Positions 57,160-63,674 of a DNA stretch of 64,000 bases are shown piece by piece; position 1 is the stretch's first letter, and every line of letters starts with the position of its first letter. The translations under genes were made by a program, and so were the position numbers. The stretch is taken from NCBI GenBank assembly GCA_020353515.1, contig CP070695.1:3823908-3887907 (forward strand), in the 5' to 3' direction. The DNA is from Candidatus Heimdallarchaeota archaeon. GTDB taxonomy: Archaea > Asgardarchaeota > Heimdallarchaeia > Hodarchaeales > Hodarchaeaceae. The notes below the pieces were generated by a model. That model saw nothing but the letters and a program-made list of their open reading frames with translations. It was not told where the DNA came from and made no database searches.

Positions 57160-57909
57160 TTATTTCGGTTTTTTTGTTTTTACCCTTGTTTTCGGGATCT
57201 TAGTTTTAATATCATTAAAAATAGGTGGGGGAATAACTTTTTTCTTTACAGGGGATTTTATATGAATTTTTGGTGGGGGTGGTTGGTTTACCACGTTTTT
57301 CTGTTTCTTTTTACCTCCCTTAGTAGAATATTGGATTGAGGGTGTTTTTGGGATTTTATCTTTAAGTATTGGTGGGAGTTGGTTAATAACATTTTTTTGT
57401 CCTTTTTTTGCACCCATAGTAGGAGATTGGATTATGGTGTCTTGGGGCATTTTTTTGTGATTTTTCGGGGGCGGAGGCTTGTTTATTGTATCAGATAATT
57501 CTTTTTTTGAATGAACTACTCCTGTTGAACGAGGAATCGTACCGATTTTATAAACTTGTTTAGGGGTAGGAGTTTTCTTATTAAATTGTGACTTTTTTTG
57601 AACATTTTTTGGAATTAATCCTATATTCGTGGGAGATTTGGTTTCGTAAGGAAGAGAATTATTTATTGGAGGAGAAACATTTGAGTCAATAGACTCTTTT
57701 TTAGTTTGGTCAGAACTACCATATTTTGAGGGTAGTTTTATTCCATCCTTTGGAATTCTTCCTCTCGCCTTTGGGGGAGGGAGTTCAAATGATTTACCAT
57801 TAAAACTGGTTGGTGTCTTTTGTTTGATCTCTTGCACTCTTAAACTCACTGGAATTTTACTTTTGATATTATCTCTAGGCTTTTTCTTACGAATCTTATG
57901 TCTGGCCAA
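57160..57909 (-). CDS. Lys/Pro-rich, basic, probably disordered protein
   Basis: 249 aa dominated by K/P/S/T/Q/N with several PPP tracts; TTG start. Confidence 0.65.
   Translation of the reverse strand: MARHKIRKKKPRDNIKSKIPVSLRVQEIKQKTPTSFNGKSFELPPPKARGRIPKDGIKLPSKYGSSDQTKKESIDSNVSPPINNSLPYETKSPTNIGLIPKNVQKKSQFNKKTPTPKQVYKIGTIPRSTGVVHSKKELSDTINKPPPPKNHKKMPQDTIIQSPTMGAKKGQKNVINQLPPILKDKIPKTPSIQYSTKGGKKKQKNVVNQPPPPKIHIKSPVKKKVIPPPIFNDIKTKIPKTRVKTKKPK
57274..57432 (-). repeat. Intragenic imperfect repeat, 32-aa period
   Basis: IQSPTMGAKKGQKNVINQLPP (57370-57432) vs IQYSTKGGKKKQKNVVNQPPP (57274-57336). Confidence 0.7.
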
Positions 57910-58012: not shown

Positions 58013-58597
58013 TTACCTACTAAGTGAAAATCCTATTCCTGAAAAGAGAAAGAATAAACCATAGAGAACTCCAATTAGATCAGTAGCAAATAATCCAGTT
58101 AATAAGAATAAAATACCAAACACAAAAAAAGTGAATAGTGCCGTCCATTCGGCAGACGGCCCTCTCTCAGACTGGGAGGTTAATCTAATAAATTTGTATC
58201 GTGTGAAACTTCGGATTAAAAGGGCTATCGATACAGCAAGATAAGGAAATGCCAAGATTGAGGCAAGGGTTATTTGTAGCTGAATAAAATTCTCTGATGG
58301 TATAATCTCAATATTAAATGTTAACAATGCTGCTTGTCCAGGAGGAAAAAACGGACTAGCCAGTAAAACGCATAACGGAATGATATTTGCCAATGAAAAG
58401 AAGTATATTTCATTTAAAGTAGCTTTTACGTCTATATAGTATAATAGTCTTAAGAAATAGAAAATTGTGATCGTAGTATAGAATGTTAAAAATATCAGAC
58501 TTAATGCAATATTATCCTCATCTCTAATGAAAAAAAAGATACTTGCTGCAAGACCCATGAGGAAAACAAAATAGGCAATTGAATGTCGTGAAACGAT
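58013..58597 (-). CDS. Polytopic membrane protein, apparent paralog of the TM domain of the upstream RING protein (possible ATC start at 58597; first ATG at 58558)
   Basis: GGAGGT lies 7 nt before an in-frame ATC; colinear motif matches to 58603-59760 (see findings). Confidence 0.7.
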   Translation of the reverse strand: MVSRHSIAYFVFLMGLAASIFFFIRDEDNIALSLIFLTFYTTITIFYFLRLLYYIDVKATLNEIYFFSLANIIPLCVLLASPFFPPGQAALLTFNIEIIPSENFIQLQITLASILAFPYLAVSIALLIRSFTRYKFIRLTSQSERGPSAEWTALFTFFVFGILFLLTGLFATDLIGVLYGLFFLFSGIGFSLSR

Positions 58598-58602
58598 CCT
58601 GA

Positions 58603-59760
58603 TTACCTCCAGCGGCTATTTAAATGATTATTTTGATACATTTTAATTAATTTCTGATAACTTTTCCCAGAAAGCCGATACATTTTCTCTGTTGAAATTT
58701 CTTTATTACAACGGGAGCAGATATTCGCTACACTCAACCATTTCTCTAGTTCATGGGAATGTGCTGGATGTCCGCAATGGGGGCATATAACAACTCGCTT
58801 ATTAGCCTCTGTAGGAAATTCATAGCAGAAAATGCAGCGAAAATCATCATCTGTTAAGTGTTGACCTATAGGTATGAGTTTTGAAAGAATAGCTGGAGGT
58901 ATTTTCTCTATACGGGTTATATTTACCCCTGTGTCTATTCCTGGAACAATATTCATTGTTGATTGAGATGAGGCTCGTTCCCTGTTCAATATTTCACGTG
59001 AACTTGGTCGTACTGCAGTTGGTAACGAATTGAAAGAGGATTGTGGCTGTCTACTTGATTGTGAAGATGTTTGAGGTGCTCTAGTTCGATTTAACTGCCT
59101 AGGCAATGATCTTTGCGTTGCCCCACGAATGGGTATTCGACGGATTGGTACTAATATGACCTTTAATACATAATGCTGTACAAATAGAATAGAACTAATA
59201 GAAATAAACCCTAATCCACTTAGTTCTATGGATCCTGTCTGGATCCAGTAGAAACTTAAACTTAAAAACATCCCAACGTTATATAGAATAATTAATTCAT
59301 TCTGATACTTCTTTCTAGAGATGAATATTAATGGATAAAGACCAGAATAATATCTTCGGATGAGTAATAAAAGAAAAATGAAGGGTGGTAAAACAAAAAC
59401 TACGCTAAATAGATTTAGAAACAAAAAAAATCTATCTATATTGAGAAAATTAATATCAAGTGTCATTTCAAGAATATATGCTTGAAGAATTCCATCTTCT
59501 CCTAGTGATGCATATTGAGCGAGGAATGTTCCTCCTAAAGCAATCAACGAAGGAATTAAGATGAATACTGCAGATGCAATTGGTGCATTAAAACGTTGAA
59601 AGTATTGCCACTCTTCAATAAATTTGATTGATAGTACGATTACTGAAGTGATATAAAGGATGGTTAGAGCGACTTCTGTCTGTTGTTCTGTAATTAATGT
59701 GAGTACTGCAAAAACGAATCCTACAGCACAAATGGAAAGATATACATTCCGCCTAACCAA
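58603..59760 (-). CDS. Membrane-anchored RING-type E3 ligase candidate
   Basis: ~6-7 N-terminal TM helices, S/Q/R-rich linker, CIFC-x13-CPHC-GHPA-HSHE-LEKW-x6-CSRC. Confidence 0.8.
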   Translation of the reverse strand: MVRRNVYLSICAVGFVFAVLTLITEQQTEVALTILYITSVIVLSIKFIEEWQYFQRFNAPIASAVFILIPSLIALGGTFLAQYASLGEDGILQAYILEMTLDINFLNIDRFFLFLNLFSVVFVLPPFIFLLLLIRRYYSGLYPLIFISRKKYQNELIILYNVGMFLSLSFYWIQTGSIELSGLGFISISSILFVQHYVLKVILVPIRRIPIRGATQRSLPRQLNRTRAPQTSSQSSRQPQSSFNSLPTAVRPSSREILNRERASSQSTMNIVPGIDTGVNITRIEKIPPAILSKLIPIGQHLTDDDFRCIFCYEFPTEANKRVVICPHCGHPAHSHELEKWLSVANICSRCNKEISTEKMYRLSGKSYQKLIKMYQNNHLNSRWR

Positions 59761-59778: not shown

Positions 59779-60687
59779 CTACTTTTCATGATCATATTCT
59801 AAAAACATACGGCCTTTCTCCTCTGTAAGAGGAAGGAGCGTATTTATCAATTCAGGAAGACTTCCTAAGGGACAATTCAATACCATATACTGGGGCTCTT
59901 CCCAAGTTTTCATATCTTCCTTTAATCGAAAGATTTTGAAACCATAAGAACCACTTGAAATCTTTGTAGGGTCAATAACTAAAGCAATGGGGGCAGTAAT
60001 TTGTGAATTACGTGCTCCAAGCCGTTGATACCGAACTTGAGTCTCATAATCCGTTTGACTCATGAATGCTCCGTATGAAGGATGAGAGTGATACCATCCA
60101 AGAATAAGTTGATTTTTATTATGAGATTTAATCTCATTATAAACTCTAACCATAGATTGTGGGTCATTAATTTGGGTATTCACATTTGTGCCGTGGCCAA
60201 TCGGGAAAGCATCTTCAATAACTAAACAGGCTAATGGTGTATCATTACTTTCTATATGACCTGTAAGGAGACCTATTACCTCTATCCAATTATTTTGGGG
60301 TACATCTGGATTCGCATATTTTAATGCGTGCAATGCTAATTTTATATAGGCTTTAAGATGAATTTTCACTCGTGAAGGCTCTGATTCGGGATTTAAGTTG
60401 TTCAAACTTAACTCAACACTTTTTGTGGCATCTAGGGCTTTAATTTGTTCCTTTTTTTTGATAAAATCAGATTTAGGAATATTTTTTTCATCTGAATTTG
60501 AAGAAATTAAATAAGAGGGATTTATTTGTATTTCTTTGCCTGTAAAACTTTCAAAATCTGCATTAGGTTTATATTTGAATGCAGGAAATTTTAAAGTAAA
60601 AGAGAAAGTCTCTGGATCAAAGGTTAGAGCAAGATCTCTAAGCAGCAATTCAAAAATATTTTGTAGATCCTTTTTCTCTTTTGACAT
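59779..60687 (-). CDS. JAMM/MPN+ metalloprotease (Rpn11/CSN5-like deconjugase)
   Basis: EVIGLL...GWYHSHPSYGAFMSQTD (E...HxH-x7-S-x2-D), ALVIDP. Confidence 0.92.
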   Translation of the reverse strand: MSKEKKDLQNIFELLLRDLALTFDPETFSFTLKFPAFKYKPNADFESFTGKEIQINPSYLISSNSDEKNIPKSDFIKKKEQIKALDATKSVELSLNNLNPESEPSRVKIHLKAYIKLALHALKYANPDVPQNNWIEVIGLLTGHIESNDTPLACLVIEDAFPIGHGTNVNTQINDPQSMVRVYNEIKSHNKNQLILGWYHSHPSYGAFMSQTDYETQVRYQRLGARNSQITAPIALVIDPTKISSGSYGFKIFRLKEDMKTWEEPQYMVLNCPLGSLPELINTLLPLTEEKGRMFLEYDHEK

Positions 60688-60718: not shown

Positions 60719-61246
60719 TCACCACTTCTTATTCGCATATTTTTTTGTAATCTTGCGAGCTTTTGTCATGAAATTCTTTCTATTGCTCAAATATTCTTGA
60801 GCTGCCTTTCTATTGAATACATCATGCGGATTAGTGTAAGCAGTATCAATATTGAACATCGCAAGGATTGAATAAATTATTGTTCCAATATTCTTTGATG
60901 GTGACCAACCATCTGGTCTACCAATTAGGTCAGGATCAACCAGTGCTAAACAAATGTTCCGTTTTCCCTTATACTCATCAGGTTTCGGCCAGAAGTTCGG
61001 ATGCCAGATTGGTGTATGCAAACGAACGAATGGGGGAGAATAGGGATAATTTGGGCCAAATTTGATTTCTAGCTTAAATTTTCCTTTCTCATATGGAGTC
61101 CCTTTAGGCCCCTCTAGAAGGACTGCAAGGTGTTCGACCGATTTTTTCCCACCTGGAAATGCTTTAACTTGTTTTATGGTTTTTTGTTTGTATAACTTCT
61201 TTAATTGATTATAATCATCAGCAATCCTCTTAATACGTATGGACAT
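60719..61246 (-). CDS. Ubiquitin-conjugating enzyme E2
   Basis: GPKGTPYEKGKF, YPYSPP, IWHPN...ICL, WSP. Confidence 0.95.
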   Translation of the reverse strand: MSIRIKRIADDYNQLKKLYKQKTIKQVKAFPGGKKSVEHLAVLLEGPKGTPYEKGKFKLEIKFGPNYPYSPPFVRLHTPIWHPNFWPKPDEYKGKRNICLALVDPDLIGRPDGWSPSKNIGTIIYSILAMFNIDTAYTNPHDVFNRKAAQEYLSNRKNFMTKARKITKKYANKKW

Positions 61247-61263: not shown

Positions 61264-62508
61264 TTATATGAATTTCAAGCTTAAATAGATCTGAGTGCCA
61301 TCTTCAAATCCTGTGACTAAGATAGTCTCATAATTACGAAGTTTAGCCTCAGAGAGGTTTAATTTCCAATCGATCTCATTGACCTCAGAAGTGTCAATTC
61401 GAAAGATGCTTGGGGGGAAATCTGGGTCGATTAGGTATTTTTTTTCTTGTGCCAATTTTGTTACAATTTTCTTCAATAGAAAGTTTGGCTTGACTTTTAT
61501 TCTATAGAGAGGAGCACGAGTATTTCCACACATGGTGCAATTTGAATTCCTCGGTTTTTCCATCTCATAGAATTTCCCAGTCAGTCCATTATAGATCACA
61601 TAATTTAATTGAAGAGAACCTAACTTCTTTTCATTTTTGGGGGTGTGTATATGGTGAAGGATTTTCACTGCTTCTTGAGATTGTAATGAGGCCATTACAC
61701 AATTAATCGTGATTACTGTGGCTTCATGATTATCAACTATTTGAATAACCTGATCTGTTGAGAATGGTTGAGACTCTGGAAAATAGGCTTTGAGTAAGGT
61801 ATTTGCATATTCCCTAACTGCACTGATTTCTTTTGGTTTCAATATATCAACAGGCCGTCCATGATCCTGTTCAAATTGTAATTGCCCTTTTAAGATACAA
61901 TGTGCTGGTTTTCGTGGCACACCAACTAACGTACAAGCACCTAACTGATCCTGTTCACGTTCAGTTAATGGATCACATTCTAAACAAGCGTTACTGAAGG
62001 GAAACATGCAATAGACATGACCATTGTAAGCTGCTGTTCCTGCATCAATTAAGGGTTTATGATTGTGAACAGCTCTTCGATTTAGTTCGGATCGGGCCTC
62101 AATTGAGTCTAAACCCGCGATAAAAAGATCTGCTTCTTGATAAAGACGGGGAGGAAGGTTTTGCAAAGCACAATTATATGCTTCAATTGAAATAAAAGGA
62201 TTCATTTCTCGAAGTCGTTTAGCAGCAAATTCTGCCTTAGACACTCCTTCTGGTGCTCCAATAAATAATACTTGTCGATTAAGGTTAGAATATTCAACTG
62301 TATCAAGATCAACAAGAATTAATTTTCCAACACTGACCATTGCCAAGTTTTTTGCAACTTCAACCCCTAATCCACCAATTCCGACAATTAAAACAGTACT
62401 TCGCTTTAAAGTTTCTTGTTTCCATCCTGGAAGGCGAAATTGACGATCAAAACGTCTTTTTTCTTCATCAGTGAATTCTTCACTTGTGAAATCTGATACA
62501 TTTGACAT
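61264..62508 (-). CDS. Ubl-activating enzyme E1 (UBA3/UBA2-like, with catalytic Cys domain and C-terminal ubiquitin-fold-like domain)
   Basis: RFDRQ, GIGGLG, DLDTVEYSNLNRQ, GLDSIEAR, CLEC, ACTLVGVPRKPAHC, CTMC. Confidence 0.93.
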   Translation of the reverse strand: MSNVSDFTSEEFTDEEKRRFDRQFRLPGWKQETLKRSTVLIVGIGGLGVEVAKNLAMVSVGKLILVDLDTVEYSNLNRQVLFIGAPEGVSKAEFAAKRLREMNPFISIEAYNCALQNLPPRLYQEADLFIAGLDSIEARSELNRRAVHNHKPLIDAGTAAYNGHVYCMFPFSNACLECDPLTEREQDQLGACTLVGVPRKPAHCILKGQLQFEQDHGRPVDILKPKEISAVREYANTLLKAYFPESQPFSTDQVIQIVDNHEATVITINCVMASLQSQEAVKILHHIHTPKNEKKLGSLQLNYVIYNGLTGKFYEMEKPRNSNCTMCGNTRAPLYRIKVKPNFLLKKIVTKLAQEKKYLIDPDFPPSIFRIDTSEVNEIDWKLNLSEAKLRNYETILVTGFEDGTQIYLSLKFI

Positions 62509-62520
62509 TCTTACTCAACT

Positions 62521-62868
62521 TCAGTAGTAGATTCCTGCTGTTGAAACAGGGATAATCAAGCATTCTAAACCATTTTCAATATCATAATTAGATAGCACAT
62601 CATCACTATCTAGAGTACGGCCACCGATAGAAATATGAAAATCCTGTGGATAAAGACCAAATATTCCTCCAAGTGTTTCTTTTAATTCCGAAACACCCAT
62701 TTCAGGATTGACAGAGAGTTTTTCAATTTTTTCACCTGGTCCTATTGTAGATCTAAAGAATAGGGTTATTTGAGTCCCACTTGGTACTTTTGTTCTCATT
62801 TGAGTTTCTAGAATCTCTTCTTCCTCTTCTTCGATTTCCAATTCATCAAAATCCTCATTTTCAGACAT
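62521..62868 (-). CDS. Ubiquitin-like protein 2 (acidic N-tail; ends STAG-IYY, pro-form)
   Basis: GRTLD-x4-LSNY beta-grasp motif; GGAG upstream of ATG 62868 gives 115 aa, the same length as its paralog. Confidence 0.88.
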   Translation of the reverse strand: MSENEDFDELEIEEEEEEILETQMRTKVPSGTQITLFFRSTIGPGEKIEKLSVNPEMGVSELKETLGGIFGLYPQDFHISIGGRTLDSDDVLSNYDIENGLECLIIPVSTAGIYY

Positions 62869-63044
62869 TGAATAATACTCCATTTCCATTCTTTTTGTTG
62901 GAAGCATTTTACAATATTTTATCTGGTAAAAGAGCTTTATAGACTGACTCTTTACTGGTGAATAATTATCCGTTTCAATCATTTTAATTATTCCCAATTA
63001 CTGTTTGAGTACTTTTTCGAGGAATTTTAATAATGAATATTGGG

Positions 63045-63239
63045 TCAGATACAAATTTCGTTTGATTGAATTACTCCAAGAGACTGAAGAATCCAAAGAT
63101 TTGCTCGGATATAATAATCGGTTGCTGAGATTATGATATCTAAATCATTACTAGACCCATGATGGATTCGCATCTTTTTCTTCGCATTTTCACGTTCATA
63201 CATTGCTTCAACTATAGATTTGACTAAACTTTCAATCAT
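63045..63239 (-). CDS. Small hypothetical protein between the two Ubl genes
   Basis: 64-aa ORF on the operon strand filling the gap; no recognisable motif. Confidence 0.4.
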   Translation of the reverse strand: MIESLVKSIVEAMYERENAKKKMRIHHGSSNDLDIIISATDYYIRANLWILQSLGVIQSNEICI

Positions 63240-63326
63240 AACCGTTATTCCATAGCTTTTCTGAGGGGATGAGAAAGAGAGGATGATTACTTTCTCTCAA
63301 TTTACGAAAGTAAGAAAGAAAAGCGT

Positions 63327-63674
63327 TCATCCTGCTGTACTATGGGGAATCAATAGAATTTCGTCACCATTATCAACGCCATAGTCGCCGATAGGAGCAG
63401 ATTCATCTAAGGTGCGACCAGCATGACTTAAGTGAAAATCATTGGGATTCAAGCCAAATATGTTAGCTAAGGTGTCTCTGACATCTCTAACTGGTGTATT
63501 TTCACCTACACTAAGTTTTTCGGTTCGTTCAGGCCCAACGGTAGATTTAAAAAATACATTCTTTTTTGGTCCTGCGGTAATATTTGTTATAGGAGTCTTA
63601 GATTGTGTAGGGGTTTTAGATTGAATTGTTGTCTGTTCTTCTACATCAAAGTCTAAATCTTCAAAATCACTCAT
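63327..63674 (-). CDS. Ubiquitin-like protein 1 (acidic N-tail; ends STAG-stop, mature form)
   Basis: HAGRTLDESAPIGDYGV aligns with ubiquitin FAGKQLEDGRTLSDYNI; exposed terminal Gly. Confidence 0.9.
   Translation of the reverse strand: MSDFEDLDFDVEEQTTIQSKTPTQSKTPITNITAGPKKNVFFKSTVGPERTEKLSVGENTPVRDVRDTLANIFGLNPNDFHLSHAGRTLDESAPIGDYGVDNGDEILLIPHSTAG

Follow-up and report, generated by a model that had tools for sequence, protein, structure and literature searches.

The ubiquitin operon of Caldiarchaeum subterraneum (PMC5654768, PMC6043591) brings together a ubiquitin-like protein (Ubl), CsUb, with a canonical E1, an HPN-type E2, an Rpn11-like JAMM protease and a small RING protein. Its cascade has been reconstituted (PMC5654768), and its JAMM protease, CsRpn11, removes the tail of pro-CsUb. 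This enzyme is blocked by Glu at the first tail position, cleaves a Gly77Ala variant of CsUb, which ends in Ala-Gly, far more slowly, and changes its cleavage rate with distal residues (PMC6043591). In the bacterial Bil/Bub systems (10.1101/2024.11.21.623953), a JAMM protease likewise frees the C-terminal Gly of a pre-protein, and the Ubls comprise one to three beta-grasp domains; these operons have no RING E3. Ubiquitin alone is encoded as head-to-tail repeats, a feature called 'enigmatic' in a review that also describes the extra residues on the last unit of yeast Ubi4 (PMC8122580).

We analysed an operon with the Caldiarchaeum-like set of enzymes in a Hodarchaeales genome, within a stretch of 64,000 nucleotides that we refer to as the window. 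Hodarchaeales are a Heimdall-group lineage of the Asgard archaea and are often placed near the eukaryotes. In what we regard as the probable explanation, two paralogous modifiers with an Ala-Gly end, Ubl1 and Ubl2, would be served by their own cascade of E1, E2, JAMM protease and membrane-bound RING protein, and would carry disposable tails. The type of cascade is already known; for the Ala-Gly family and for archaeal polyubiquitin-type genes, our literature search, which was of incomplete coverage, found no paper. The operon contains the following features:

63327..63674, minus strand: Ubl1, 115 aa; core beta-grasp after an N-extension of ~37 aa (acidic, then Lys/Thr/Pro-rich), ending in STAG-stop
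62878..62881, minus strand: GGAG, Shine-Dalgarno-like, 9 nt 5' of the Ubl2 ATG
62521..62868, minus strand: Ubl2, 115 aa; architecture like that of Ubl1, with Gly112 followed by IYY
62524..62532, minus strand: IYY pro-tail of Ubl2, three codons; hypervariable and unconserved
61264..62508, minus strand: E1, 414 aa; GxGGxG at 43, Cys192 in a UBA3-like CT..G.PR.P.HC motif, two CxxC
60719..61246, minus strand: E2, 175 aa; HPN at 82, Cys99
59779..60687, minus strand: Rpn11/CSN5-like JAMM protease, 302 aa; Glu136, His200, His202, Ser210 and Asp213 intact
58603..59760, minus strand: candidate E3, a membrane protein whose C-terminus has a RING-like finger; only weak RING matches in Pfam
58013..58558, minus strand: membrane protein, 181 aa; syntenic, follows the RING gene

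The operon and its modifier family

The preliminary description of this DNA read Ubl1 and Ubl2 as two 115-aa paralogues, one stopping at its Gly and the other running on as IYY, and the sequence bears out both points (IPHSTAG-stop and IPVSTAG-IYY-stop) as well as all shared motifs that were named. The spacing of FF[KR]ST[VI]GP..EKLSV alone needs amending: the motif is present, with three residues (Ubl1) or four (Ubl2), not two, between GP and EKLSV. Between the two cores, identity reaches 48% across 87 aa (tblastn E 7e-22); with PF00240, Ubl1 scores 31.2 bits and passes the cut-off of 25.4, and Ubl2 stays under it at 20.6 bits. Ubl1 is born mature in this genome. Ubl2 forms a clade of its own (100/95) in the Ubl tree and is the faster-evolving of the two, with a mean identity in relatives of 80% over the last 60 aa, as against 92% for Ubl1.

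The ORF finder had extended Ubl2 to 158 aa from an upstream TTG; we rejected this start, since the GGAG site and the variable upstream frame favour the 115-aa version. Similar purine-rich sites also precede the Ubl2 orthologues, and the open frame 5' of the start varies from 0 to 77 codons among them and carries no strong codon signature. Substitutions are strongly biased to third positions in the coding part of Ubl2 (19/2/1) and weakly upstream of the 115-aa start (10/5/5). A contig from a public run, which may come from the source sample, is identical across the IYY region. A search of viral contigs for relatives found none, and a scan for bacterial promoters and terminators, whose coverage excludes archaeal promoters, stayed at chance level. 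The spacer of 458 nt between the two Ubl genes (62869-63326) is of constant length among close relatives and contains a 43-codon open frame before the Ubl2 start; it could possibly hold a regulatory element or a short leader.

E1, E2 and JAMM protein retain their key residues. The E1, which begins 12 nt past the Ubl2 stop, has its Cys motif in 28/28 near-complete homologues and finds its best matches in UBA1 and UBA3 (104-123 bits; UBA5, 57 bits), and the E2 motif (HPN, Cys) is present in 27/27 homologues. The E2 matches PF00179 with 94.5 bits, its HPN included, and does not match the UFC1 profile PF08694; a canonical UBA3-like E1 paired with an HPN-type E2 rather than with UBA5/UFC1 types, as originally proposed, is thus upheld. 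The JAMM residues are intact in all 23 full copies; this protein is a candidate for both maturase and deconjugase. The RING-like finger shows RING-type spacing and a Trp, and its sixth ligand is Glu, not the usual Cys, in all 20 complete homologues seen; this missing Cys speaks against our explanation. Wherever a congeneric locus is long enough to judge, its genes run Ubl1-Ubl2-E1-E2-JAMM-RING, and of the relatives with a name, Hodarchaeales MAGs come closest, Ca. Hodarchaeum mangrovi among them. Beyond the operon, at 57160-57909 of the window, a Lys/Pro-rich ORF of 249 aa is syntenic in many congeneric loci and diverges fast (29-73%); its product is a possible substrate.

By analogy with Caldiarchaeum biochemistry, the JAMM protease would cut after the Gly, and the E1 would adenylate this Gly and take it over as a thioester at Cys192, from which the E2 would accept the Ubl at Cys99. 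The RING protein would then direct the Ubl onto target lysines, probably at the membrane, and the JAMM protease would also take it off again.

The Ala-Gly end is common to a large family. Its profile found matches in 127 of 301 Asgard genomes, strong ones in almost every case, across several classes including Lokiarchaeia and often with 2-5 copies per genome. Penultimate Ala and terminal Gly occur in 238/238 distinct units, and 223 of these end in PxSTAG, the others in close variants. The predicted structure of Ubl1 (pLDDT 92) has CsUb as its top Foldseek match (TM 0.88, 27% identity), and VIA structure matches to ISG15, ubiquitin and NEDD8 reach Z 13.5-15. We conclude, from sequence and predicted fold, that Ubl1 and Ubl2 are putative modifiers of an Asgard-wide branch of the ubiquitin family with an Ala-Gly mature end. 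The family is also related to a Gly-Gly Ubl at 1.383 Mb of the same genome (profile probability 94%). Few deep forks are resolved in the Ubl tree, which is based on 79 columns.

Despite their overall likeness to the Caldiarchaeum operon, the genes described here differ in several respects: two paralogues end in Ala-Gly instead of Gly-Gly and carry an acidic/KTP N-extension of ~35 aa, the RING protein is membrane-bound with Glu as sixth ligand instead of small, and the tail, whose function as a pro-tail is suggested by the Caldiarchaeum counterpart, is optional and hypervariable, with poly-unit genes in relatives. With eukaryotic ubiquitin, NEDD8 and ISG15 the Ubls share the fold, and the E1 resembles UBA1/UBA3; in contrast to eukaryotic ubiquitin, they show only ~20% identity, no Gly-Gly, and no lysine past residue 53 (Ubl1) or 63 (Ubl2). 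The disordered N-extension recalls SUMO, as do weak Rad60-SLD matches (21.8 and 13.6 bits, under the cut-off of 23.8); however, the TGG end is absent, and ubiquitin-type matches rank higher. The N-extensions (63570-63674 and 62773-62868) start with an acidic F-x-D-L and continue with SKTP-like repeats, which are common to the family and to each poly-unit. The operon E2 is very basic (34 K/R vs 14 D/E), and charge pairing with the acidic extension is possible. Many Asgard proteins carry a STAG-ending Ubl at the C-terminus behind another domain (P0125, P0135-P0155, P0144, P0148; L051:9694-11454), among them Roadblock-labelled proteins, forms of ~263 aa and a 591-aa HerA/FtsK-type ATPase; one such fusion (L049:2947-3792) has lost the Gly end.

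The genome as a whole encodes four ubiquitin-family Ubls of three kinds at three separate E1/E2 loci, which suggests that parallel modifier pathways predate eukaryotes. The second system (L100:2853-8700; G000 1379849-1386172) consists of a 106-aa Ubl ending in KGG, an E1, an E2 and a JAMM protein, and adjoins a PCI protein of 582 aa that matches UFL1 weakly (E 0.0085). Its Ubl aligns weakly with UFM1 over the full length (E 0.5-1.5), yet is profile-related to the STAG family. The third (L101:3646-4981 and G000 3982056-3982511) comprises an 81-aa canonical Ubl, which ends in TGG and is capped by FPN, and its E1; an E2 gene and a small RING-like gene lie close by. The two other JAMM proteins and two other E1/E2 sets could act on Ubl1 and Ubl2, which weighs against our explanation.

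Tails, cap and processing

The preliminary description went on to propose a two-modifier code, with Ubl1 available constitutively and Ubl2 withheld by IYY until its release by the JAMM protease. As a selected switch, this is improbable. Conservation of IYY had been named beforehand as a point on which the proposal would turn, and IYY is not conserved: it occurs once across 221 terminal units, of which 92 are tailless and 129 tailed. Behind the Gly there is either nothing, a tail of 1-22 residues or a whole further unit. Even where the E1s are 87-91% identical, the tail sequence is not retained, and the five closest E1 relatives (99*) have five different Ubl2 ends, namely IYY, I, FDF, SSNRS and none. 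A single base, TAA vs TAC, separates I from IYY in a close relative, and a change of TGA to TGG yields tails of the WN/WR kind.

Both genes are complete in 17 Hodarchaeum pairs. Exactly one paralogue is capped in 13 of them and both in none, Ubl2 is maintained as a separate clade, and rates of CsRpn11 can be tuned by distal residues. However, in 8 of these pairs the cap sits on the other paralogue or on neither: Ubl2 alone is capped in nine, neither copy in four, and Ubl1 alone in four, the last being one clade in the E1 tree. As independence would lead us to expect ~2 double-capped pairs, 0/17 in related genomes lends the code weak support. In four genomes (G026, G051, G057 and G230; completeness 81-92%) only capped copies were among those detected, and in G026 both are capped. 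From these sequence comparisons, IYY appears to be a fast-changing, disposable tail and not a code or switch, although in this single species it could still make Ubl2 mature more slowly.

We also give little credence to the idea that Ubl1 is the sole working modifier, with Ubl2 either a spare copy in decay or an adaptor that is not conjugated and binds the JAMM protease or E1. The faster evolution of Ubl2 (80% vs 92%), its score under the Pfam cut-off and the single copy found in many lineages would fit such a role. Against it stand the strong third-position bias described above, the STAG in every Ubl2, the birth of Ubl2 in mature form in 8 of the 17 genomes, and its retention on the opposite strand in two other loci (L059 and L061). 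Judged by its coding sequence, Ubl2 is a real, maintained paralogue, evidently under purifying selection.

If tails are disposable, anything past the Gly would be a pro-tail that drifts with shifts of the stop codon and is limited only by its cleavability, with IYY as one example, and whatever distinguishes Ubl1 from Ubl2 in function would reside in their diverged cores and not in the cap. That cleavage after the Gly is needed follows from the genomes with only capped copies and from the head-to-tail genes. Ubl2 as encoded bears IYY past its Gly and would need trimming, as the preliminary description had recognized, and the intact JAMM protein of the operon is the likely protease, by analogy and in line with a structural model. 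The model of the JAMM protein with Zn and Ubl2-IYY scores 0.90 (best control, 0.46; the mark for such complexes is reached by 58/80 solved pairs and 2/110 mismatched pairs). At least 94% of contacts recur between runs, the partner pLDDT is at least 91, and among the interface residues listed are the Ubl2 tail (104-114) and the catalytic Glu136, His200, Ser210 and Asp213. Since the CsRpn11:CsUb complex has already been solved, the model shows likeness rather than binding and may reflect memory.

The composition of the tails is compatible with this role. The first residue (n=129) is never Asp or Pro and only once Glu, which fits the block of CsRpn11 by Glu, and hydrophobic residues occupy the first position in 102/129 tails and later positions in 120/260 cases, although kin are not independent and the nominal P values therefore overstate the contrast. 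The main weak point of our explanation is the slow action of CsRpn11 on Ala-Gly, which implies that the JAMM protein and E1 of the operon must differ from the Caldiarchaeum enzyme or have adapted. With the invariant Ala-Gly, on which CsRpn11 performs poorly, one can test directly how the penultimate residue is read by E1 and JAMM enzymes and how pathways are kept apart.

UFM1 and sulphur carriers

A likeness to UFM1 had been suggested for both Ubls. The single terminal Gly, the Pro that ends the last strand and the short pro-tail do recall UFM1, and Asgard homologues of Ufm1 exist in the literature (PMC12962969). That Ubl1 and Ubl2 are such homologues, or forms that bridge ubiquitin and UFM1, is nevertheless very unlikely. 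With the Ufm1 profile (PF03671), this locus yielded nothing even at E 10, none of the 45 aligned family members matched, and no protein from 201 Asgard genomes exceeded the cut-off; however, most true Asgard UFM1-like proteins escape this profile as well. The comparison of sequence and fold that had been proposed sides with ubiquitin, CsUb, NEDD8 and ISG15: the best 50 rows in each of Foldseek, VIA and VIA-wide are ubiquitin-type and do not include UFM1, nor is UFM1 among the best 60 PDB sequence matches.

As the absence of UFM1 from lists of top matches excludes nothing by itself, we sought a positive control, and found it in a different Asgard family that was reached via a weak match to Pfam Ufm1 and ends mostly in K/R-D-L/V-L-G. 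UFM1 accounts for the top 13 PDB sequence matches of its profile and for the top 13 Foldseek matches of its model. The methods used thus do recognise Asgard UFM1. Among the neighbours of this family, the short E1 tested has UBA5 as its best match, and one gene exceeds the Pfam cut-off for UFC1, a protein that has been described as restricted to eukaryotes (PMC10183829). The control family probably corresponds to the published Asgard Ufm1 homologues (PMC12962969). Its profile scores Ubl1 at -1.0 bits and Ubl2 at 0.5 bits, with an hhalign probability of 8%; at this level the control family and the Ubls of the window are unrelated.

The operon itself points the same way. Despite the single terminal Gly and the short pro-tail that it shares with the cascade of UFM1, UBA5 and UFC1, it has a Ubl of another family, which ends in PxSTAG and not in the UFM1-type R/K-D-x-x-G, an E1 of 414 aa of the Cys-domain type and not of the short UBA5 type, and an E2 of another class; E1 and E2 are both canonical. 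That the Ala-Gly Ubl family is not the ancestor of UFM1 is a negative result worth having. The UFM1-like family was not found in this genome, which is 96% complete; its profile matches 42 of 301 Asgard genomes, in some cases within frames of 206-302 aa, which may be fusions. Cassettes of UFM1-like, UFC1-like and UBA5-like genes occur in other Asgard families (L115-L124; L123:1369-2259, L117:65-1764).

That the Ubls are sulphur carriers of the ThiS/MoaD/SAMP/URM1 kind is hardly credible: beyond the ThiF family of the E1 and the automatic annotation of a few poly-units as 'molybdopterin converting factor', it has to contend with a ubiquitin family matched by 45/45 members and ThiS weakly by 2/45, with ubiquitin-type folds, with an operon that includes an E2, a RING protein and a Cys-domain E1, and with the lack of a Gly-Gly end. 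The same evidence sustains the earlier reading of Ubl1 and Ubl2 as Ubls of the conjugable type with a single terminal Gly, distinct from ThiS/MoaD.

Head-to-tail modifier genes in relatives

In 12 sequence clusters from relatives, 2-3 Ala-Gly Ubl units follow each other head-to-tail and in-frame, and every internal unit retains its Ala-Gly end. Located examples are:

L061:8001-8690, L063:2960-3697, L067:8001-8753, L129:1620-2360 and L127:59-1177: poly-Ubl genes of 2-3 units (proteins P0082-P0093) from Hodarchaeales-type assemblies

In six of the 12 clusters (where located), the E1 gene of the same operon follows immediately downstream of the poly-Ubl gene, and one of the clusters contains proteins whose annotation traces them to Hodarchaeales MAGs. 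The 24 genomes of this order that we examined all lack such a gene; the poly-Ubl genes come from other assemblies, and a metagenome pattern scan with the di-Ubl returned one weak locus. We rejected assembly artefacts as their source in most cases, since the units are not identical to each other and were seen again in separate assemblies. Less weight falls on L061, whose units are 95% identical in DNA, on L059, where unit 1 is interrupted by an N gap, and on L060, whose unit 1 contains an in-frame stop.

In the E1 tree, the operons with poly-Ubl genes stand in two separate places, one within the Hodarchaeum clade and one beside it, and in the Ubl tree the poly-units group with Ubl1 (weak support). 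The simplest reading is a repeated origin of these genes by tandem duplication. The conserved internal Ala-Gly suggests that they encode precursors that are cut into monomers. The likeness to the polyubiquitin genes UBI4, UBB and UBC extends from the head-to-tail arrangement to the last unit, which usually carries a few extra residues. In contrast to polyubiquitin, the N-extension remains in each unit as a spacer, the units have often diverged from each other (63-95% identity in DNA), and a JAMM protein, not a cysteine DUB, would make the cut. Compared with the multi-domain Ubls of the Bil/Bub systems, every repeat has its own Ala-Gly end.

A wider reading, to which we give about an even chance, would see here a parallel Ala-Gly pathway of the Asgard archaea. 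Its JAMM protein and E1 would have adapted to Ala at -2, its modifiers would in Hodarchaeales be encoded either as tandem paralogues or as polyubiquitin-style precursors of at least two origins, cut into monomers by the operon JAMM protein, and Ubl1 and Ubl2 would mark different targets via their cores. The poly-Ubl genes of the relatives provide a testable prokaryotic case of head-to-tail modifier repeats. If this reading is true, they would be the first prokaryotic poly-modifier precursor genes that we could find, and they would concern a modifier other than ubiquitin.

Two of the loci show a further peculiarity: L059 and L061 have a Ubl2 orthologue upstream on the opposite strand and, between the di-Ubl gene and the E1, related ORFs of 69-70 aa (L059:8497-8709, L061:8773-8982).
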